Shown in pieces: positions 25,901-61,994 of a DNA stretch of 64,000 nucleotides. Each line of letters begins with the position of its first letter. The stretch's first letter is position 1. Source of the stretch: Folioceros fuciformis (lineage: Eukaryota); NCBI GenBank assembly GCA_049999805.1, contig JBNGIO010006279.1:92533-156532 (forward strand), read 5' to 3'. Under the pieces are notes generated by a model, which made no database searches, was not told the origin of the DNA, and saw only the letters and a list, made by a program, of their open reading frames with translations. The position numbers and the translations under genes were made by a program.

Positions 25901-27705
25901 GCCAGGCCGCAAGACCGCTGGACCGCTTGGCGCTGGACCCGAGCAGCGCTCTTCAACGTTCAAACAATGGCAGCCTCGGGCCGAGGCTGCAGGCGCGGGA
26001 CCGGGGCTCGAGGTCATGAGTGCAAACGCTCGAGAACATGAGTCAGGTGAGGTCGCCGGGGCGGGCCGGGGCTGGCAGGCTCGGCGCACAGGAGGGTGGT
26101 GGGTACATACGCACCGCATGCGCTCATGGGGCCATGCTCCATATGCTCTCGTGACGCTAACCCATGACGGACGACGGCGTCATCGATGGATGGGTCACGC
26201 AAGAGGGCCGACCCGGGGCCTGGGCCCGGGTCTCCTTCAGAAACATCGTGACTATTCACAATGCATTCCACCTCGGTTTTGTGGCACGCGATGCCAAGGG
26301 AGCTTGTACATCTTCTATTCACCACTAAGGACACAAGGACGCAAGCCTAGCAGTGGACCAGCTCTTGTCTTCACTTGTCATCTCCCACACGCTCAGATAT
26401 GGGATCTCTCTTACTTGCCGTCTCCACGATCTCAATTCAACGTTGGATGAATGAGTGGGATACACCAGACAGCAACAGGAAGCAGCAACAGCAGCAGCAA
26501 CTGGAGCAGCAGCAGCTGCAGCAGCCATTCCTTCCATCACCAACCAACACCCACCTCATTCATAGCCCAGCCAGAACCAGCCTTGCAGACGGCGGCTAGT
26601 GCGAATCACTCACCTAAACCTCCCATGTCACCCTCCATACCAACAGCAATCCTCCAAGAGGATGAGACCAGGGTTGACAGCTTGACGTCGAGGGACTGGA
26701 GAATTATGTGTTACGAGGCGGAAAGTAGGTGGGCTGGAACAGCAGGATGCAAGAGCAAGAGAAAAAGCCAACAGGAGCAGAGAGTGCGGCGCGTGTGAAG
26801 TGGGCCAGTAAAGGCAGGATGCCAGCCGCCCTCCAGTAAGACGCCTCTGACGCCATTGTCTGAGGCCAGGGACATTTTTCCCCCACTTTTCCTTAGTTTA
26901 GTTGTCGGCCACAAAATCCGCTCCATGTCCGGTGTCTCTTCTCCTCATCCCCCTTGCCTTTGCAATCTCGCTTTAGGGAGGAGAACAAGTCCTTCATTCC
27001 AGGGACTCAATGTGAACATGGGATTCTGCAACTTGGACTTGGATGGTCAAGAAAGTCCTCAGGTCGACAACGTGCTGTGATGAGTCTGCATTCCTTCTTA
27101 GCGGCCAAAACCTATTACCGAAAATTCACATAATTTATTGGCTTCTTGGACTGGACTTTGCCTCGGAACGGGCTACCTGCTTCGGAAGGCGTGAGGTTTG
27201 GATAGATTATTGACGTGGTGCCTGCGGGCACTTCGCTACGTGATTGTGGATCTGGGAACTTGTGAGATTTGAGTAAATCGTTAAGCTGATGAAAAGACTT
27301 CCAGATACCTACCTATCTAGGGCGCTGTGCGATTTTCAAATAATTTATGTAGTTATTCACAAACCCTAAACTTAACATCAATGTAATCTATTATACTTTT
27401 TGAGAATGATGTTCTAAGGGGTTAGTACTTTTTTATGCCCTGGGGGCTATGCTTGGGTTGTTCCTCCAATCTTCGGAGTAGATGAGATTTTCTATCTCTT
27501 TTTAAATAATAAAAAATAATCTTCACTCTAATCTCTTCTCTTTCAAACCAACCAAGCCCAGTGTGCTTTTTTTGTGAGAGGATTAGGAGGTTCTTAAAAT
27601 TTGGGGGAAAGAGGATTCAAAGGTTTCTTACATTGCTTTTCAACTTCAAGATCATGAATTCAAGGTCATCTTTGTATTTGTTACTTCTATGTCTCTCATT
27701 CTCCC

Positions 27706-43087: not shown

Positions 43088-45259
43088 TCACATGTCCCTT
43101 GTTTGATGATCGTACAGAATAACGCTCTTGTATTCGTCGGTGTCGATCTATTAAGAAGCAAGCGTTTTGTCAAATCCGATCCATCCTCGAGCGTAAGACC
43201 GAAATTAGGAGCGACTGTCACAGCAACGAGTCTAACAGGAGGCACGGTCTGCTCACCTCTACTCGGGTGGTCAAATCCCCGGGAGGTGAATTTGGATTGA
43301 CCTACGGCAAGGCAGAGTTTAGGATCAGACCTCGTTACAACTGCAATCTGTCAATCCTGCAAGTCAGCTGCAGTACCTTAGCATAGCTGGAATTGCGGAA
43401 GAACTCACATTGATGATCTTGCGGTCTATCTTGTTCTTGAATTGGAGCCCAGCGTCACTTTCAGCTATTACCTGAGAATGTTAGCGCGGCATGTCAGCTG
43501 CTTCCAAACAACCACGTACATATGATTGTAAATCTCATCAGTGATGATAGCCCGTAATCCTGAGCCAAACCTGAAAATTCGAAGATGATGATGATAATGC
43601 GACCTTTGTTTTCCTGCGCGACAGATCTTCGCTAAGTGCAACTGGCCTGTGCTGAAGGATCGTTTTCTCATTGACATGAGCCATTTGGTTACCAATTGTA
43701 ATAAGAAAGGTCGTAAGGCTTGGGCAGAAGCCTTTTCTTCCTCAAAAACAATGGCTCCAAGTCTTCGGATTTCAAACGCTCCCCATAGTCTATGTACCCT
43801 GACACCTGAGAGACTCCAGTTACTTGTTGGTTTTCCTGAGCTTGTACGTGAAAGTTTCATCTGCTCATGAGAAGCAGCTCACCTCGTGTCCTCGCGGATG
43901 CACATCCCTTACAAAAATGATTGTCTTATTCCAGTTAAGCAAATCTTCAAAGCGAACTCACGACACCTTGAAGATGAAATGCTTCTAGAAGGTAAAGGAT
44001 ACTGCCAGTTTTCCATCACGACACAACACCTCTCTTTCAGCCAGTGCCTGCCATCGGAACAGAAATGCAGCATTTTCCACGTAAGTTAGGCCNNNNNNNN
44101 NNNNNNNNNNNNNNNNNNNNNNNNNNNNNNNNNNNNNNNNNNNNNNNNNNNNNNNNNNNNNNNNNNNNNNNNNNNNNNNNNNNNNNNNNNNNCTTCCCTT
44201 CACTGAACACTTTCTTCGGCGCTTTTCTCAAGGCCTGCATACCAAACAAGAAATTATATTAGCAGCAAAATCGACGCTGCGTGGCTGATGACAATCTGTA
44301 TAGATGCCGATGTCAAGGTGTATAGATGCAGATGTCGTAGACCTGAATACGGGCAAGCTCTGCTGCATCCTTCAAACTCTTGAATTCCTCTCGAGACAGA
44401 ATTTCCGCATTGCCCCGGTACCTGTTGAAATCAACTGATTACGGAGAAGTTCGAATCAAAGATTTGAAAATCTTCTCAAACACAGTGAAGCGAGAAATCA
44501 GCCAACTATTTCAGCGGATATCAGTAACAACAGGCTCGAAAAAACCGGTCAAAGCGAATGCATGCATTCATCAAGAGAAATTTCTCACCCGTGTTCAACC
44601 AGCTGTCTAGCCAAGTCCGTGTCTTCCAAGTAGTAGAGGTCTAGCGGTGTGATCTGCGCGTCCAAGTAGTCCTCATACCTGACAATGGACCAGCGGCTTT
44701 TTTAAGCAAATACTACCAGGGTCGACAACTCCCCGGAAACACACAGCAATGATGCAAGCAGGAGGGACACAGTCATCGTCCTCAGGCTCTAAATCTTCCG
44801 AACTATCTGAATTAGTACAGCCATATCATATGTCGGATGAGGAGTTGCGAAATACGTTGTATAGCCGGAGATAGATTCGCCTGGAGAAGGTGCAAGAGGC
44901 ACAGCAGCTGCACTTCCGCGCTTTGCAGGGACAGAAGTTTTGGTCTTCATAACAGGTACGTCTTCCTGTCAAGCTATCTGCAGGGACGTCCTCTCTCAAA
45001 CATTTCAGGTGACCAATCCATGCAACCGGATGAGAAAATGTTTCCAAATTGTTCCCATTGCAGTTGCCCCACCCAGTGCACTTTCCTCACAGACAACAGT
45101 TCTGACCTCGGCAACTATTTCTGAAGCTTGCTCGTCCGCCGCGAAAGCACTGGTTCCTCGGGCTGTCGCTGTGGCGTGCTTACGCAGCAGTTGTATTGGC
45201 TCCAATGCATCTGAAGAAACAATGGAGAATTCTCCTGCTTTGCGTTGGCTCATCATCAT
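43088..45259 (-). CDS. CFAP299: Cilia- and flagella-associated protein 299 (DUF4464/C4orf22 homologue); 12 short exons, one cut by an assembly gap
   Basis: Exons 45259-45107 (or ATG at 44950), 44965-44856, 44678-44589, 44421-44343, 44234-gap, 44047-44003, 43924-43883, 43805-43693, 43613-43571, 43471-43409, 43301-43257, 43147-43088. Translation [43 protein letters not shown]...ALAERE..CRDGKLATIIFVRD...[39 protein letters not shown]...[20 protein letters not shown]...YDH is colinear with CFAP299. Confidence 0.92.
43925..44002 (-). other. U12-type (minor spliceosome) GT-AG intron, 78 nt
   Basis: 5' site GTATCCTTT and branch-like TTGCTTAAC ending 9 nt before the 3' end of the intron, with no polypyrimidine tract. 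Removal joins GKLA|TIIF in frame. Confidence 0.85.
44093..44192. other. Assembly gap (100 N)
   Basis: Run of N. It hides the end of CFAP299 exon 5 and its donor site. Confidence 0.99.
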
Positions 45260-45485: not shown

Positions 45486-45564
45486 TTTAGGGCTTTACAC
45501 TGTCAAACCCTAAGTGAAGCCGTCTTTCGCAGGCCCTCCTCACAGTTTGAAACCCCTATTTAAA
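45486..45564 (+). promoter_or_regulatory. Putative Pol II promoter of the snoRNA cluster (telo-box + TATA), divergent from CFAP299
   Basis: AAACCCTAA at 45505-45513, TTTAGGG at 45486-45492 and TATTTAAA at 45557-45564. Telo-box plus TATA is typical of plant snoRNA and ribosome-biogenesis promoters. Confidence 0.55.
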
Positions 45565-45909
45565 GGCGTCGTTCGCGGAGGCATTATGTCGGACCTGCCA
45601 GTCCTGTCTTCGTGAAGGCTGTCTGGCTCTGCGCTGCGTTGTGCTTCGGCCCCCGGAGTCCTTCAGCCTCGTCTTGGCCTGGTCTGTGTAGGTTTGGTGC
45701 ATGTGCAAATTTGTGTTGGCATTGGCTGTGGTAACCTGACGTGTTTCCTTGCCGGGGAAATCGATGCTGAATCACCTTCTCGTCTATACCTAAGAGAGGC
45801 CGTCCTGTCGTTTGCGCCCTGGCCGGTCGTCAGCTGCGCATGTCATGCCATGTGTTCTTTGGTGCCTGAGGGCTGCTGCTGTTGCTCGTCCGTCCTGTGT
45901 GTGAGAGGG

Positions 45910-45986
45910 TGCCAGGGATGTTGAAATAGCGGATTTCTGTGAAGCCTTTCAGGCTCAGGAGCATCCATGTTACACACACTGAGGCA
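45910..45986 (+). ncRNA. snoR22: Box C/D snoRNA, snoR22-like (dual 25S rRNA 2'-O-methylation guide)
   Basis: Terminal stem TGCC/GGCA and variant C box GGGATGT. Guide TAGCGGATTTC precedes D' GTGA (45939-45942) and guide TGTTACACAC precedes D CTGA (45979-45982). Both guides are complementary to the adjacent conserved 25S stretch GAAAUCCGCUAAGGAGUGUGUAACA (recalled). Confidence 0.8.
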
Positions 45987-46100
45987 ATTTGATGAACTTC
46001 AGTCGAAGGTGTTTGCTGTGGTGTACCCGACGTCGTAGGTTGGGGGTTTTAGATCAGGGCTTTGGCCCTAGGAGATACGTCGTCGTCACTGCTCCACCTG

Positions 46101-46171
46101 TTCGGATGATGAATTTTGCGCTGATTTCCATGATGTTAAATCGAAGCACACTCTAATTTTTTGCTGACGGA
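46101..46171 (+). ncRNA. Box C/D snoRNA candidate with an 18S-complementary D-box guide
   Basis: C ATGATGA 46106-46112, D' CTGA 46121-46124, C' ATGATG 46130-46135 and D CTGA 46164-46167. Stems TTCG/CGGA and GCTCCAC/GTGGAGC flank it. Guide CACTCTAATTTTTT at 46149-46162. Confidence 0.75.
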
Positions 46172-46606
46172 GACGTGGAGCCCGGCTAGGAGAGAGTCCA
46201 GGTCTTCTATGACTTCAATTCGGTGCACGGTTCCTGGAAAGGGGGCGCACAGACTTGGATACGTCAATACTTGGAACTGGAGGAGCCGCAGTTACCTGCC
46301 CTAATTAACTTTTCATGTACGACATATATGTATACCATACCATTCTCTCACCTAATGTGCATCCTCCTTCCGAATGCTTTGCTTCGGGCTCCTCCGCACA
46401 TCGTGCTCCCAGTAATCAAGGTCCGATCTCTCTCGGTTCGACTACTCTTAAAATCCTCCTGCTTTGACTTTCCTGAGCTCTCCCCTTCTGTGCGACTCAA
46501 GCTGTGTGAGGGTGACCCGTCTTCATCCAGTCCAGTCCTGTTTCGATTGAAACCGGAATTTGAACTTAAGCCCTGTGCTGGACGATTGTTTTTGTTTACC
46601 ACTCGC

Positions 46607-49600
46607 TCAACAATACTGCTTGGTTTCTTGCAACAAATCCAGTGCAAATATTGAGAACCCTTCAGACCTTGCTCGTTTGCCCGAAAGACAAGCCCGCAGG
46701 TTGAAGAAAGTACTGTCATTACACCAATCGGTAGATCCTTCACAATGACTCTGGGAGTCCCTGGTGTTGTTGTAAGCATATCCCACCCCCAAGGTCACGG
46801 TAGAGTCACTTTGATCCTCCGCTGTATCACGTATGTCTGCCTGTGAAGAGGGTGGATGTGGCGCACATCCTTGTTTCTTCTCCATTTTGGGAAGTGCACG
46901 CCCCAGCATTGTGCTATTATGGGGCGGCTTCTCATCCCCAACTGAAAATGTATGCACTTGTCCGTCCATGTCTGCCCACGAGCTTTGACCCGGCTGCTTC
47001 CATGCACCGGTTCTCACTCTCCGGGCCTGCATCTTGTGTGCCTGCTCCCACATCTCGGCATCGGTGTAAATGTGTGACATCAAAACGTATGCTGACGCGT
47101 CTTTCTCGTCTAGCTTCACTGCTTGGTCGAAAGCATGGCATCCCACCTCCACGTTGCTCCACATCCGACAAGCACCCAGCAGCGTGTGCCAAACTGCAGC
47201 ATTCGGCAGTACAGGCATTCTTCTGATCAAAGTAAGAGCCTCTTCTAGTCGGCCGGCACGGCCCAGGAGATCCACCATGCATGTGTGATGCTCTAATGTG
47301 GGAGTGATTCCATACAGCTGGCTCATGGCCTCGAAGTAGCCTCTTCCCTTGTTCACCAAACCCGCATGACTGCACACTGTTAGAACGCTTAGCAATGTGA
47401 TGCCCACTGGATGAACCCCACCGTCTTTCATCCTCTGAACCAAGTCGAACACCACTTCGCTGTCTCCTTGGCAGGTGTAGCCTGCAATGAGGGAATTCCA
47501 AGCAACAAGGTCTGGGTCTGCCAATGTATCAAACACCTGCTGTGCATCAACCATGCTCCCGGCCTTCCCATACATGTTTATCAAACTGCTGGCTACAAAC
47601 GCATCAGCTTGAAATCCTTGTTCTGCAATCTGGGCATGGAGCTGTCTTCCCACATGCAAGGCTGCAACATTTGCACATGCCTGCAGCAGGTAGACAAATG
47701 TCATGGGATCGGGTACAGCAATGCCTTCTTCTTGCATAGAACTGTAGCGACGAAGGGCTTCATGGCCCAGTCCCTGCTGGGAATAACCTGCTATCAGAGC
47801 AGTCCAGGTGACAACGTCCTTTTGGGTGAGCCCGTTAAACACCCGCTGGGCATCTTCGAGGCTTCCACACTTTGCATACATGTTCACCAAACTGTTGGCG
47901 ACAAACACATCTGCTTGCTGTCCGTGTTCCCTGACTTCAGCATGAAGCTGCTTCCCCCTTTCCAAAGCAGCGGTTCCCACACTTGCACAGGCATGCAGAA
48001 GACACACAAATGTAACAGGAACCGGCACGGCGATGCCGTCTTCCTGCATGATACTGTAGAGTTCGAGGGCTTTCTGGCCCATGCCCTGCTGGGAATAACC
48101 AGCTATCATGGCATTCCATGTCACAACATCCTTGTGGCCAAGTCCGTCGAACATGCTCTGCGCGTCTTCCAAGCTGCCGCACTTTGCATACATGTTCACC
48201 AAACTATTGGCCACAAACACATCACCTTGGTGTCCCCGTTCCTTGATTTGCGCATGAAGTTGCTTCCCTTTCTCCAAGGCCGCAGTGCCAACACTTGCAC
48301 ATGCCTGCAGAAGGCACACGAATGTCACTGAATCAGGAACAGCGATGCCTTCTTCCTGCATAGCAGAGAAGAGACGAAGGGCTTTTTCTCCCATGCCCTG
48401 TTGGGAGTACCCTGCTATCATGGCATTCCAAGTCACTACATCCTTCCGACTGAGCCCGTTAAACACACTCTGTGCATCTTCCAAGCTGCCACACTTTGCA
48501 TACATGTTTACCAAGCTGTTGGCTACAAACACGTCAGCTTGACGTCCCCTTTCCCTGATCTGCATATGAAGCTGCTTCCCCTTCTCCAAAGCTGGCTTGC
48601 CCACACTTGCACATGCCTGCAGGAGGCACACAAACGTCACGGAATCAGGAACAGCGATGCCTTCTTCCTGCATAGCAATGAATAGACGAAGGGCTTCATC
48701 TCCCAACCCCTGCTGGGAGTATCCTGCTATCATGGCATTCCATGTCACCACATCCTTTTCACCAAGCCCGTCGAATACTCTTTGAGCGTCTTCCAAGCTG
48801 CCACATTTTGCATACATGTCCACCAAGCCACTACAAACAAAGGGATCCGGCTCCACCCCACTAGCCAACACATCAGCATGCACTTCCTGCCCAGTTTTCA
48901 AGTCTGCTCCCCTTGCACAAGCCTGAAGGGCTCCCACAAACACATGCCCATCAGGCTTCACATTGGACCTCCGCATCCGGTGGTAAAGTTCTATGGCCCG
49001 CTTGTCTTGCCCATGTTTAACATGGGCAGAGATTATGGCAGACCACGTGAAGGCATCCGGTTTATCCACCACTTGGAACACATCCATTGCATCCTGCAGC
49101 CTGCCATGAGAAGCATACATCCGCAGGATAAGGGTGCCCAAGAAGGCGTCCGACTGATACCCATTTTTCACCATGAAAGCATGGACTCGGCAACCGAGAA
49201 CAATATCCTTCTGGACTGCACATTTCTTCAGCACGGAGTTGAAAACAGACTTAGAAATGCAACAGTCTGTCTGCACCAAGACTCCCAGAGCTTCAACAGC
49301 CTCCACCAGCTGCCCCTGCTGACAGAGCTTGCCTACGGTCTCCACCGTCACGTCCCTATCGTGATCTGCAGGCCAACGACGGTAAGGATCACCTGATAAC
49401 ATACAGTCGAGAGCAGCAACCTGGGCACCCACACCATCTCCTTTGAAGACGCTGCTGGACCAGAGGGCACCCTGGGACTGCATGTGCTGGACATGAGCAC
49501 GGACAGGGATTGTTGCCAAAATGCTGCACCTTCCGACTTGCTTGTGCGTCAATGCTTGATTGCCTGAATTCACGCGAGCGGGAAGCTTTCTCAAATTCTC

Positions 49601-49696
49601 CACGGATCCAGCAATTTGCTGGGTCCAGGAATCCTGCACCATGAACAGATTATTTTGACCTCGGCGTGACAGCAATGCATTGCTCCAGGCTGCCAT
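46607..49696 (-). CDS. PLS-class PPR protein (organellar RNA-editing factor type) with E1/E2, a WW-like PG box and a decayed DYW tail; intronless, 1029 aa
   Basis: Repeated P-L-S triplets (VVTWNAMIAGYSQQG / TFVCLLQACA / NSLVNMYAKCGSLEDA), E motifs HHTCMVDLLGRAG and VWHTLLGAC, then WKQPGQSSWADMDGQVHTFSVGD. Confidence 0.93.
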   Translation of the reverse strand: MAAWSNALLSRRGQNNLFMVQDSWTQQIAGSVENLRKLPARVNSGNQALTHKQVGRCSILATIPVRAHVQHMQSQGALWSSSVFKGDGVGAQVAALDCMLSGDPYRRWPADHDRDVTVETVGKLCQQGQLVEAVEALGVLVQTDCCISKSVFNSVLKKCAVQKDIVLGCRVHAFMVKNGYQSDAFLGTLILRMYASHGRLQDAMDVFQVVDKPDAFTWSAIISAHVKHGQDKRAIELYHRMRRSNVKPDGHVFVGALQACARGADLKTGQEVHADVLASGVEPDPFVCSGLVDMYAKCGSLEDAQRVFDGLGEKDVVTWNAMIAGYSQQGLGDEALRLFIAMQEEGIAVPDSVTFVCLLQACASVGKPALEKGKQLHMQIRERGRQADVFVANSLVNMYAKCGSLEDAQSVFNGLSRKDVVTWNAMIAGYSQQGMGEKALRLFSAMQEEGIAVPDSVTFVCLLQACASVGTAALEKGKQLHAQIKERGHQGDVFVANSLVNMYAKCGSLEDAQSMFDGLGHKDVVTWNAMIAGYSQQGMGQKALELYSIMQEDGIAVPVPVTFVCLLHACASVGTAALERGKQLHAEVREHGQQADVFVANSLVNMYAKCGSLEDAQRVFNGLTQKDVVTWTALIAGYSQQGLGHEALRRYSSMQEEGIAVPDPMTFVYLLQACANVAALHVGRQLHAQIAEQGFQADAFVASSLINMYGKAGSMVDAQQVFDTLADPDLVAWNSLIAGYTCQGDSEVVFDLVQRMKDGGVHPVGITLLSVLTVCSHAGLVNKGRGYFEAMSQLYGITPTLEHHTCMVDLLGRAGRLEEALTLIRRMPVLPNAAVWHTLLGACRMWSNVEVGCHAFDQAVKLDEKDASAYVLMSHIYTDAEMWEQAHKMQARRVRTGAWKQPGQSSWADMDGQVHTFSVGDEKPPHNSTMLGRALPKMEKKQGCAPHPPSSQADIRDTAEDQSDSTVTLGVGYAYNNTRDSQSHCEGSTDWCNDSTFFNLRACLSGKRARSEGFSIFALDLLQETKQYC

Positions 49697-49984
49697 GGCT
49701 CGCAGGAGCCTACAGAAGCAAGACCCACCAATTCGCCATTATGGGATATGATCAAGCGAGAGTCCTTCTCGGGAAGGACTTGATTCCATTCTGGCATTTT
49801 ATCGGTCCTTTCTCGTTCCGAATTACCATGTGATTCATTTACATTGCAATCCCAATCGAAGTACCTCCTGCTGACCGTGCGGGAGTTCGTAGCCGAGGAG
49901 CCTTCTGTCTGAACAGGCTGCCTCGTGCTGGGCGGTGCTGGAAGCAGGCTAGGGCCATCCCCTTCGACATTCTGGACAGTGAAG

Positions 49985-50467: not shown

Positions 50468-53400
50468 TCAGTTTGAAAAGGCCTGCTGTTTCACTCTTGC
50501 CTGACTCTTGGGATTTTTCTCGTCCCCAACCAGAAAACTATGCACCTGACCATCCATGTCTGTCCACCAGCTCTGACCCGGCTGCTTCCAGGCCCTGGTC
50601 TTTTCCCTCCTCGACTGCATATCGAGTGCCTGCTCCCACATCTGGGCAGAGGTGTAAATGTTTGCCATCAACGTGTACGCTGCAGCATCTTTCTTGTCTA
50701 GTTTCACAGCTTGGTCGAAAGCGTGGCACCCCACCTTCACGTTGCTCCACTTCTGACAAGCACCCAGCAGCGTGTGCCAAATTGCAGCATTAGGCTGGAC
50801 AGGTATCCTGCTGACCAGATCTAGAGCTTCATCTAGTCGGCCTGCACGGCCCAGCATGTCCACCATACATGTGTGGTGCTCCAGTGTAGGATTGATGCCG
50901 TAGTGTTTACTCATAGACTCCAAGCACTCTGTCCCTTTGTCCACTAGGCCCGCATGACTGCATACTGTTAGTACACTGAGAAATGTGACGCCGTCAGGCT
51001 GAATGCCATCCCCTTTCATTTTCTCGACAAGGTCAAACACCACTTCACTGTGTCCTTGACAGGAGTACCCTGCAATCAGTGAATTCCATGCTACGAGGTC
51101 CCTTTTGGGCAATGCATCAAACACTTCCTGAGCATCAACCATGCATCCACATTTTCCGTACATGTTTATCAAACTGTTGGCTACAAACTCGTCAGCCTCA
51201 AGCCCTTGTTCTTGGATCTGTGCATGTAGTTGCCGTCCCAGATTCAAAGCTGCCACATTAGCACAAGCTTGCAGGAGGCAAACAAATGTCATGGGATCAG
51301 GTACTGAAATGCCTTCTTGCTGCATAGCACTGTATTGAGAAAGTGCTTCCTGCCCCATGCCCTGCTGGGAATATCCTGCTATTAGAGCGGTCCAGGTCAC
51401 CACATCCTTTTCGCCCAGTTCATCAAATACTCGCTGAGCAGATTCCAAGCTGCCACACTTTGCATACATGTTGACCAAACTGCTGGCTACAAACACGTCA
51501 GCTTGATGTCCTTGTTCTCTAATTTGCAAATGAAGCTGCTTTCCCTTCTTCAAACCTGTGGGACCCAAACTAGCACAAGCCTGAAGCAGGCACACAAATG
51601 TCGCAGGATTCTGTACCACCATGGCTTCTTGTTGCGTGGCACTGTGAAGCATGCCCTGCTGGGAATGGCGTGCTATCATGGCATTCCACAAAGCCACAGT
51701 GCTGTTGAAAACACTCAGGGCATCCTCAAGGCTGCCACACTTTGCATACATGTTGACCAAACTACTAGCTACAACCATATCCAAATGATGTCCTAGTTCT
51801 CTAATTCGTGCGTGAAGCTCCCTCCCCCAAGCCAAAGCTGGTATCCCCACACTTGCACATGCCTGCAGAAGGCACAAAAATGTCACGGCATCAGGAATAG
51901 CCAAGCCTCCCTCTTGCATGACCCTAAAGAGCTGAAGGGCTTCATGGCCCTTGCCCTGCTGGGCATATCCTGCAATTAAAGCAGTCCAAGTCGCCAACTC
52001 TTTTTGAGCAAGTCCGTCAAACACTCTCTGAGCATCTGCCAAGCTGCCACATTTTGCATACATATTCACCAAACTGCTGGCGATAAACGCATCAACTTGG
52101 GGTCCTTGTTCCCCAATTTGTGCATGAAGCTCCTTCCCCTTCTCCAAAGCTGGCATGCCCACCCTTGCACAGGCCTGAAGGAGGCACACAAACGTAACAA
52201 TATTGGGCACAGCAATGCCGCCCTCTTGCATAGCATTATACAGATTAAGGGCTTCCTGGCCCATGCCCTGCTGGGAATATCCACCGATTAGAGCAGTCCA
52301 GGTCACGACATCCTTTTCATCAAGAGCTTCAAATACCCTCTTAGCATCTTCTACGCTGCCACACTTCGCATACATATTTACCAAACTGTTAGCGACAAAC
52401 ACATCACCTTGATGTCCTTGATCTGTAATCTGAGCTTCAAGCTGTTTCCCCTTTTCTAAAGCTGGAGTTCCCAAACTTGCACATGCTCGCAGGAGGCACA
52501 CAAATGTCACAGAATCTGGTGCAGCATTGCCTTCTTTTTCCATTGAACTGTAGAGACGAAGGGCTTCCTGCCCCAGGCCCTGCTGGGAATACCCTGCTAT
52601 TATGGCATTCCATGTCACCACATTTTTTTCACTGAGTGCATCAAATACTTTCTGAGCTTCGTCTAGGCTGCCACACTTTGCATACATATTAACCAAACCG
52701 TTGGCCACAGACACATCATGTTGGTGTCCTCGTTCTCTTATGTATGCATGAAGCTGTTTCCCCTTCTCTAGAGCTGGAGATCCCACATTTGCACATGCCT
52801 GCAGCAGGCACAGGAATGTCACAGAATCAGGTAGAACAATGCCTTCGTCTTGCATAACCTGGAAAAGACGAAGGGCTTCCAGTGCCCTGCCCTGCTGGGA
52901 ATACCCTGCTATCATGGCATTCCAGGTCACCACGTTCTTCATACCAAGTCCATCGAAGACAACGTGAGCATCCTCTAAGCTGCCACACTTGGCATACATG
53001 TCCACCAAACTGTTCACTAGAAACGCATCCCCTTGATATCCTCGTTCTCTAATTTGTGCATGCAGCTGCTTCCCCTTCTCCAAACCCAGTGACCCTACAC
53101 TAGCACATGCCTGCAGGAGACACACGAATGTGATAGAATTGGGTACAGCCACACCTTCGTCCCCCATAGCACTGTAAAGACGAAGGGCTTCCTGGCCCAT
53201 GCCCTGCTGGGAGTATCCTGCAATCAAAGCGGTCCATGTCACCACATCTTTGTGATGAAGCCCATCAAACAATCTCTGAGCATCTTCCAAGCTGCCACAC
53301 TTCGCGTACATGTTCACCAAGCAGCTACTGACAAAAACATCAGGTTCAAACCCACTGGCCAACACATCAGCATGCACCTGTTGCCCAGTTTTCAAGTCCA

Positions 53401-54160
53401 AACCCCTAGCACAAGCCTGAAGCGCTGCCACAAACACATGTCCATCGGGCTTCACATTCGAGTTGCACATCTGATGATATAGTTCTACGGCTTTCTTGTC
53501 TTGTCCATGTTGAACATGCGCAGAAATTATGGCACACCATGTGAAGGCATCAGGCTTGGCAACCACTCCAAACACGTCCATTGCATCTTGCAACCTACCA
53601 TGAGAAGCATACATCCGCAGGATGAAGGTGCCGAGGAACGTGTCCGACTGCCATCCCTTTTTCACTGTGAGTCCATGGACGCGGCACCCTAGAACAAGAT
53701 CGTTCTCGTGTAAACATTGCTTCAGGACTGTACTAAAGAGAGATTTAGGTGCAAAACCGTTCGTTTCCACCAGAACTCCTAAAGCCTCGACAGCCCCAGT
53801 GAGATGGCCCTGTCGACAAAGCTCTCCCACACCTTGAGCGGATGCGGTCCATCTGTATCCTGCAGGGCTTCGAAAGTCAGAATTATCTGGCCAGCTGCAT
53901 TTCGAAGCATCGCGACCCATCTCCAGAAGTGTAAGCTCCCGAAGAAACGGCCGTGCCAATGGCGGATCCTCGCTGCAGGACGACCCATCTGCAGCAAGAC
54001 ATCCTCTTGCACGGGTTGGATTTCTTCCAGAGGTAGTGCACCTCGCGGCCTGGTTGTTCTGGGGCCGGGTCCTTGAAGCCAGGTGAGCAGGAGCTTGTCC
54101 AAGAAGACATGTTCCACACAGCCATCGCTCGCAGAGGCGAAGCAAGCTAAATCTACGCAT
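50468..54160 (-). CDS. PLS-class PPR protein with E1/E2 and a WW-type PG box, truncated before the DYW catalytic core; intronless, 1230 aa
   Basis: Transit-like N-terminus and many PLS triplets. Ends WKQPGQSWWTDMDGQVHSFLVGDEKNPKSQARVKQQAFSN*. Confidence 0.94.
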   Translation of the reverse strand: MRRFSLLRLCERWLCGTCLLGQAPAHLASRTRPQNNQAARCTTSGRNPTRARGCLAADGSSCSEDPPLARPFLRELTLLEMGRDASKCSWPDNSDFRSPAGYRWTASAQGVGELCRQGHLTGAVEALGVLVETNGFAPKSLFSTVLKQCLHENDLVLGCRVHGLTVKKGWQSDTFLGTFILRMYASHGRLQDAMDVFGVVAKPDAFTWCAIISAHVQHGQDKKAVELYHQMCNSNVKPDGHVFVAALQACARGLDLKTGQQVHADVLASGFEPDVFVSSCLVNMYAKCGSLEDAQRLFDGLHHKDVVTWTALIAGYSQQGMGQEALRLYSAMGDEGVAVPNSITFVCLLQACASVGSLGLEKGKQLHAQIRERGYQGDAFLVNSLVDMYAKCGSLEDAHVVFDGLGMKNVVTWNAMIAGYSQQGRALEALRLFQVMQDEGIVLPDSVTFLCLLQACANVGSPALEKGKQLHAYIRERGHQHDVSVANGLVNMYAKCGSLDEAQKVFDALSEKNVVTWNAIIAGYSQQGLGQEALRLYSSMEKEGNAAPDSVTFVCLLRACASLGTPALEKGKQLEAQITDQGHQGDVFVANSLVNMYAKCGSVEDAKRVFEALDEKDVVTWTALIGGYSQQGMGQEALNLYNAMQEGGIAVPNIVTFVCLLQACARVGMPALEKGKELHAQIGEQGPQVDAFIASSLVNMYAKCGSLADAQRVFDGLAQKELATWTALIAGYAQQGKGHEALQLFRVMQEGGLAIPDAVTFLCLLQACASVGIPALAWGRELHARIRELGHHLDMVVASSLVNMYAKCGSLEDALSVFNSTVALWNAMIARHSQQGMLHSATQQEAMVVQNPATFVCLLQACASLGPTGLKKGKQLHLQIREQGHQADVFVASSLVNMYAKCGSLESAQRVFDELGEKDVVTWTALIAGYSQQGMGQEALSQYSAMQQEGISVPDPMTFVCLLQACANVAALNLGRQLHAQIQEQGLEADEFVANSLINMYGKCGCMVDAQEVFDALPKRDLVAWNSLIAGYSCQGHSEVVFDLVEKMKGDGIQPDGVTFLSVLTVCSHAGLVDKGTECLESMSKHYGINPTLEHHTCMVDMLGRAGRLDEALDLVSRIPVQPNAAIWHTLLGACQKWSNVKVGCHAFDQAVKLDKKDAAAYTLMANIYTSAQMWEQALDMQSRREKTRAWKQPGQSWWTDMDGQVHSFLVGDEKNPKSQARVKQQAFSN

Positions 54161-54254
54161 GCAAATGTGCCCGACCGTAGGTAGCTCGTAGCGTGCACGA
54201 AATGAGCTCAGATGCGATCACACTGAGGGAGCAGCACATCCATGGAAAGCGAGG

Positions 54255-61635: not shown

Positions 61636-61708
61636 GGGGGAGTAGCTCAAATGGTAGAGCGCCCGTTTCGCATACGGGAGGTAACGGGATCGATGCCCGT
61701 CTTCTCCA
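61636..61708 (+). tRNA. tRNA-Ala(CGC)
   Basis: Full cloverleaf: acceptor GGGGGAG/CTTCTCC with the G3:U70 Ala identity pair, D stem GCTC/GAGC, anticodon CGC at 61669-61671, T loop ATCGATG (A54, typical of eukaryotic tRNA-Ala) and discriminator A. Confidence 0.93.
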
Positions 61709-61994
61709 CTGTGGAATCCTGAACATTGTTGTTTTCCCCGAATTGCGTTTTAGTACATTTCCTACATCCAGGCTCCACATGTGATATACTGTGTTTCATG
61801 ACAGTTGGTAGCGGTGCACCTGGTGGCCACCCAGAATGCAGTCGAGGGCAATTGGCTCGCAGTGCGGTGCTCCTCGAGTGGAGCTCCTTGACATAGGAGA
61901 GCTCAGCAATGTCCGACCTGCGGCTCTTCGGTGGGAGAGGCCCTGAAACTTCTAGGCGGGCCCCGGCGAAGGGGCGACAGGATTCGGAGCGACC

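Follow-up and report, generated by a model that had tools for sequence, protein, structure and literature searches.

A likely guide RNA for 2'-O-methylation of 18S rRNA residue A755 in a plant genome, with counterparts in fission yeast and Aspergillus

Introduction

What does the gene for a box C/D snoRNA in this stretch of DNA guide, and does it belong to a family that is already known? The stretch (64,000 nt, hereafter the window) had received an initial annotation made from its sequence, in which the guide of the snoRNA was pointed at an A-rich segment of 18S rRNA. Two explanations had been offered for a target at which angiosperm maps are not known to list a 2'-O-methyl: an rRNA modification specific to one lineage, or a chaperone-type guide. 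Here we examine the gene, its target, its genomic setting and its counterparts in other organisms.

Results

A box C/D snoRNA gene closed by two stems

The gene lies on the + strand and extends from outer stem to outer stem over 46091-46181 (Table 1). Boxes C, D', C' and D and the two flanking stems (4 bp for the terminal and 7 bp for the outer stem, read directly from the sequence) are all where the initial annotation had placed them. The window has 2 matches to the four-box pattern, whereas 100 order-2 Markov resamples gave on average 0.01 per window; the combination of four boxes and two stems is thus more than chance. The other four-box match, at 43541-43652, is a loose C/D pattern with no Rfam match at gathering. 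Fold stability was unremarkable (z -0.66; 45 of 200 shuffles equally stable), and for C/D snoRNAs a non-significant fold alone is usual. In the RNA, a short stem closes off box C (RUGAUGA) and box D (CUGA) at the two ends, boxes D' and C' lie between them, and beside box D stands an antisense element within the 10-21 nt range that is complementary to the genome's own rRNA. Judged by these sequence features, the locus is a genuine box C/D guide RNA gene.

Table 1. Features of the snoRNA locus and its upstream region (window coordinates)
Feature	Position	Strand	Basis and remarks
Candidate RNA polymerase II promoter	45486..45564	+	Motifs: telo-box-like AAACCCTA at 45505 and TATA-like TATTTAAA at 45557
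snoR11/Z151-like box C/D snoRNA, upstream neighbour	45909..45987	+	Rfam RF00349, 37.6 bits, E 2.9e-4, gathering 50
Outer (flanking) stem, 5' arm GCTCCAC	46091..46097	+	Pairs with 46175-46181; preserved in copy 2
Terminal stem, 5' arm TTCG, beside the C/D kink-turn	46101..46104	+	Pairs with 46168-46171; identical in copy 2
Box C ATGATGA	46106..46112	+	Pattern search; identical in copy 2
Box D' CTGA	46121..46124	+	Pattern search; no conserved guide before it; box kept in copy 2
Box C' ATGATGT	46130..46136	+	Pattern search; TGATGT preserved in copy 2
D guide CACTCTAATTTTTT, 14 nt	46149..46162	+	Complement of 18S AAAAAAUUAGAGUG
Spacer, single G	46163	+	Between guide and box D
Box D CTGA	46164..46167	+	Pattern search
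3' arms: terminal stem CGGA (46168-46171), outer stem GTGGAGC (46175-46181)	46168..46181	+	Read from sequence

The guide faces the fourth A of the A6 run in 18S rRNA

The guide had been described as the exact complement of an 18S motif, and this complementarity was found in the genome's own 18S: all 14 of 14 pairs are Watson-Crick in two assembly pieces (L003 and L004). The host 18S piece is incomplete, with a gap of 100 N, and an angiosperm-type 18S piece is present in the assembly as well. When the inter-box region was shuffled, a perfect complement of 14 nt to the rRNA pieces of this genome arose in 1 of 3000 shuffles. The D+5 position, T46159, faces the fourth A of the A6 run (760 when numbered as in L005), which agrees with the earlier placement of the target within that run. 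This residue is A755 in S. cerevisiae, A768 in S. pombe and A760 in Arabidopsis. Thus the guide stands before box D with its D+5 position opposite A755, as expected of an A755 guide.

The 18S motif is present in three assembly pieces, reading A6 in L003 and L004 and GAAGAAA in L005. The last piece (G000:C6555; 18S-ITS1-5.8S) matches L004 at 80-97% identity in its first 1200 nt and at 100% from there on, and is probably a chimera with an angiosperm-type contaminant. In L003 (G000:C5371:14042-17059), an 18S fragment is followed by three plant telomere-type repeats and a 25S fragment, and the piece adjoins retrotransposon-like sequence. We considered whether the A-to-G change of angiosperm 18S blocks pairing and found no support for it: the duplex energies are nearly equal (-16.5 vs -16.4 kcal/mol) because of a G-U wobble. 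The base change leaves the modelled pairing intact and therefore does not by itself explain loss of the guide.

Ahead of box D', no complement of 8 nt or more was found in the genome's rRNA pieces, which hold 25S only in part. A second guide at D' was rejected on this ground and because the sequence there differs between the two genomic copies.

A second copy and a probable dicistronic cluster

The pattern search and a DNA search agree on 2 genomic copies. Copy 2 (L001, G000:C6148) is 81% identical over 90 nt and retains all boxes, the entire guide and both stems; the region before D' has diverged, the 8-9 nt ahead of that box being unlike in the two copies. In both, a snoR11-like RNA lies ~100 nt upstream of the A755-guide snoRNA. 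The neighbour in copy 2 scores 42.8 bits, still below the gathering value of 50. Two guides of the window neighbour, 45927-45937 (11 nt) and 45968-45977 (10 nt), complement the genome's own 25S piece and pair ~15 nt apart on it. Arabidopsis A1263 and U1278, which have this spacing on 25S, are assigned to snoR22 (PMC8053127). The 25S targets of the snoR11-like RNA would be the equivalents of A1263 and U1278.

A telo-box-like block lies ~400 nt upstream of the snoR11-like RNA in both copies; the TATA-like motif is found only in the window copy. Plant polycistronic snoRNA genes have this arrangement, with a telo-box and TATA element ahead of successive snoRNAs. By analogy, 45486..45564 is probably an RNA polymerase II promoter, with the snoR11-like RNA probably the first gene and the A755-guide snoRNA the second gene of a dicistronic cluster. 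Between the two genes, a third snoRNA or hairpin was sought: there was no Rfam match, and z was -0.61 and +0.29 in the two copies.

With two copies in the genome, the one in the window could be a paralogue that is silent or in decay, and the one on C6148 could be the functional gene. The lower score of the window neighbour (37.6 vs 42.8 bits), its degenerate box C and the pentatricopeptide repeat (PPR) piece beside copy 2, which suggests a segmental duplication, are points in favour. Against this, neither copy has lost the boxes, the guide, either stem or the promoter-like block, at an overall identity of ~76-81%, which indicates selection on both. We regard a silent window copy as highly improbable.

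Two long, intronless PPR reading frames lie in tandem on the minus strand (46607-49738 and 50468-54217). Both end in an E motif followed by KQPGQS(S/W)W, with no obvious DYW domain, and are of the organelle RNA-editing-factor type. Their nearest atlas clusters are Streptophyta, a weak hint; together with the non-angiosperm 18S, these neighbours suggest a seed-free land plant. Beside copy 2, L001:2173-2415 is 75% identical to window 46928-47157, which lies towards the 3' end of the adjacent PPR gene, and the duplication of the snoRNA cluster seems to have included this piece. A tRNA-Ala(CGC) gene lies at 61636-61709.

The search for expression data returned no run on record as RNA that contains the stretch; 1 of the 3 listed runs (X1) contains it, and the RNA status of that run is a guess. 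The snoRNA is covered by contigs of this run (one reaches from 45926 to 46235, and cover starts at 45589; strand and ends are unspecified), a cover that may stem from an opposite-strand PPR transcript or from the source sample and that we do not count towards expression. One contig of the same run joins a minus-strand GT-AG gap (46234-46351) downstream of the PPR frame whose end is 46607. This suggests a 3' UTR intron, with a convergent PPR transcript reaching to at least 46206, ~25 nt from the snoRNA outer stem.

Counterparts in fission yeast and Aspergillus

The RNA had been said to fit no known plant snoRNA family, and this held in Rfam: it matched nothing at gathering, and the plant models gave no match. 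The best weak match was Afu_298 (RF01507) at 25.5 bits (E 1.9), against a gathering value of 40 bits, which leaves the plant RNA outside RF01507 as curated. A second match of this model, at 27481-27532 (13.5 bits), is AT-rich and boxless and was taken as chance. The Afu_298 consensus agrees with 19 of the 20 nt of guide, spacer and box D. Afu-298 itself (AM921940) was cloned from Aspergillus fumigatus, detected on a northern blot and classed as an orphan (PMC2377427, Table 1); it corresponds to snoStrip family CD_41, which is given as absent from Saccharomycotina in Canzler et al. 2018 (PMC5824354).

A closer likeness was found in fission yeast. Window positions 46148-46167 equal the last 20 nt of S. 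pombe snR84, from guide to box D, when compared by eye with the supplements of PMC4138321, and the 14-nt guide is also retained there in three further fission yeasts. This box C/D snR84 is distinct from the H/ACA snR84 of S. cerevisiae. It is listed with 18S-Am768 as target (Diao et al. 2014, PMC4138321; AJ617352), an assignment that combines a D+5 prediction with primer-extension mapping. Mass spectrometry (MS) found Am768, equivalent to S. cerevisiae residue 755, to be 99.4% methylated, and the fragment AAAAmAAU-psi-AG places the methyl exactly on the fourth A; the site is entered without homology support from budding yeast (Taoka et al., PMC4605285, Table S3). The initial annotation had held that an Rfam hit to a described family with this target would remove the novelty. 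A described family with the target does exist; the Rfam match itself falls short of gathering.

These data also bear on the chaperone-type guide, by which the RNA would pair with pre-18S and steer its folding in 40S assembly with no methylation in this plant. The long conserved duplex is compatible with either role. Known processing snoRNAs differ from short RNAs in which all boxes are canonical, and the present RNA is of the latter sort. Afu-298 was originally filed as an orphan (PMC2377427), which fits a chaperone; the guide, however, sits in the exact D+5 register for the residue that is methylated in S. pombe (PMC4605285, Table S3). A chaperone-only role is very unlikely because the register falls on a residue proven methylated elsewhere. 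A folding role in addition to methylation may exist.

The guide recurs in metagenomes

A metagenome pattern scan for box C, guide and box D, which is blind to D'-type guides, returned at least 123 stretches and at least 95 distinct guide-plus-D RNAs. Taken with S. pombe snR84 and Afu-298, which have the same guide and site, these speak against a lineage-specific modification, the other explanation offered initially. T6 is present in 93 of the 95 listed RNAs; 58 have a perfect box C and 89 a box C with at most one mismatch, rates that are partly set by how the pattern was built. A terminal stem of at least 4 bp closes 53 of the 95, whereas shuffling the 3' arm 200 times gave a mean of 9.4 and at most 17. 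The guide variant that would compensate the angiosperm change (TTTCTT) was found in 2 of the 95 listed matches, box C being mismatched in both and the stems 1 and 3 bp long, and was treated as chance. Viral contigs scanned for the variant gave 0 matches, a result that carries no weight.

Rfam was run on 40 of the metagenomic loci. Six pass the Afu_298 gathering value, and these look ascomycete-like. Four have plant snoZ43 nearby, with telo-box motifs where these were counted; the four seem to represent a single plant sequence. Flanking exons were examined at 27 loci (111 reading frames): RPP0 lies beside 6, RPB1 around 2 and RPL10 around 2. Many metagenomic guides are intronic to, or beside, housekeeping genes such as these. 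The RPP0 (uL10)-like gene is beside or around the snoRNA in L016, L020, L045, L056, L065 and L074, a conserved linkage. An RPB1 exon at L049 scored ~122 bits against animal chains and at most 60 against fungal chains, and the RPP0 of L020 is nearest to a fungal chain, the organisms behind the PDB codes used for both placements being those we take them to be. For L031 (an RPL10 intron) and L074, kingdom placement was tried and none was reached. As far as their sequences place them, fungi, animals and one further plant are represented among the listed loci, most of which are unplaced.

Two groups of fungal-like loci (L008, L020 and L065 vs L013, L016 and L034) differ before D', one carrying TTTTTAAC and the other CTGCGTTCTTT. 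The latter presumably resembles a 5.8S complement, and the former would presumably pair with the A619 region of yeast 18S. Fungal-like lineages thus seem to have exchanged one D' guide for another. In an alignment of 30 sequences (snR84 not included), conservation is confined to the boxes and the guide, and the mean column identity of 49% lies mostly there. Homologues hardly align outside these elements, so family membership rests on the target.

Presence and absence in other lineages

The absence of an angiosperm 2'-O-methyl at this residue, suggested in the initial annotation, is borne out for Arabidopsis: MethScores of A760 in three wild-type replicates are -0.05, -0.05 and -0.15, the residue is called unmethylated, and it has no guide listed (PMC8053127, Table S4). 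For Dictyostelium, the table in PMC8817022 (Table 1) gives no site between Am612 and Am796; flanking-site offsets would put the equivalent residue at ~750, and the site seems absent there too. The Neurospora table has no 18S target near the A755 site (PMC2780460), and in the accessible part of a nucleomorph study no guide to this site was apparent. The human absence of the A755 methyl rests on a single sentence of one paper. For plants, 18S Am768/A755 has been published as not found. We found no plant member with an A755 guide in the papers searched. Other supplements, subscription papers and a Chlamydomonas survey may contain one; guide and target strings were absent from the readable part of the supplements of PMC5122169 and PMC8053127.

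There are two ways to read this distribution. Plants, fungi and animals could each have evolved a D guide to A755, the RNAs being functional analogues. The guide is fixed by its target, hence identity is expected under convergence, and the scan pattern could detect D-type guides only. Moreover, the bodies do not align, the D' guides vary between groups, the settings vary (polycistron, intron, beside RPP0), and neither the Arabidopsis nor the Dictyostelium map shows the site. On the other hand, the same site and the same 14-nt core recur in fungal-, animal- and plant-like contigs, and several losses would be simpler than several gains at one nucleotide. Divergence of the body and change of host gene are also normal among accepted snoRNA orthologues (PMC4138321). 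We therefore consider convergence unlikely. The alternative, which we prefer with moderate confidence, is that the Am755 guide is an ancient family that predates the split of plants from fungi and animals and was lost independently in several lineages.

Discussion

The window very likely encodes an A755 methylation guide of the snR84/Afu-298 kind, made from a dicistronic precursor. RNA polymerase II would transcribe a two-snoRNA precursor, with the snoR11/snoR22-like RNA first and the A755 guide second. The second RNA would be excised, trimmed to the C/D terminal stem (~70 nt) and bound by Snu13, Nop56, Nop58 and fibrillarin. The D guide would make 14 Watson-Crick pairs with pre-18S rRNA, placing fibrillarin on the fourth A of the A6 run (S. 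cerevisiae A755) for 2'-O-methylation, and the D' side would contribute no conserved guide. We infer transcription, processing and methylation in this plant, as well as common descent with the fungal RNAs.

The pattern looks like that of an old guide that budding yeast, humans and Arabidopsis no longer have. If the family is indeed ancient, it has survived in seed-free plants, many fungi and invertebrates and was lost separately from budding yeast, humans and angiosperms, the three groups that usually supply rRNA modification maps. The present locus would then be the first plant member and would bring snR84 and the Rfam 'orphan' Afu_298 together in a single family; in angiosperms, the A-to-G change next to the target would be a sign of constraint relaxed once the guide was gone. 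Tallies of ancestral rRNA modifications that are based on yeast, human and Arabidopsis would overlook the A755 site. The published statement that 18S Am768/A755 is absent from plants would be corrected. We predict an A755 methyl in the ribosomes of seed-free plants and invertebrates. The sequences are available to broaden the Rfam model, which at present misses non-ascomycete members.

How does the plant RNA compare with known systems? Arabidopsis has C/D guides for the same part of 18S, snoR119 (A780), snoR25 (A796) and snoR53Y (A801), whose adenosines lie 20-41 nt downstream (Wu et al. 2021, PMC8053127, Table 1); their sites differ from the target described here, and the Arabidopsis 18S reads GAAGAAA at the target region where the host has A6. 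Afu-298, at 93 nt, is longer than the plant RNA (~70 nt), and Afu-298-type, ascomycete-like homologues carry the conserved TTTTTAAC before D', which the plant RNA lacks. S. pombe snR84 shares with the plant RNA a 20-nt identity that takes in the guide, the spacer G and box D, as well as the D+5 target (18S Am768, the equivalent of S. cerevisiae A755) and a similar size (81 nt listed). It differs in being intronic, whereas the plant RNA lies in a cluster behind a snoR11-like RNA, and in its longer listed pairing (19/1), whereas the plant guide forms a perfect 14-bp duplex. What is new is thus a wider range of a known guide family and not a new family or mechanism.
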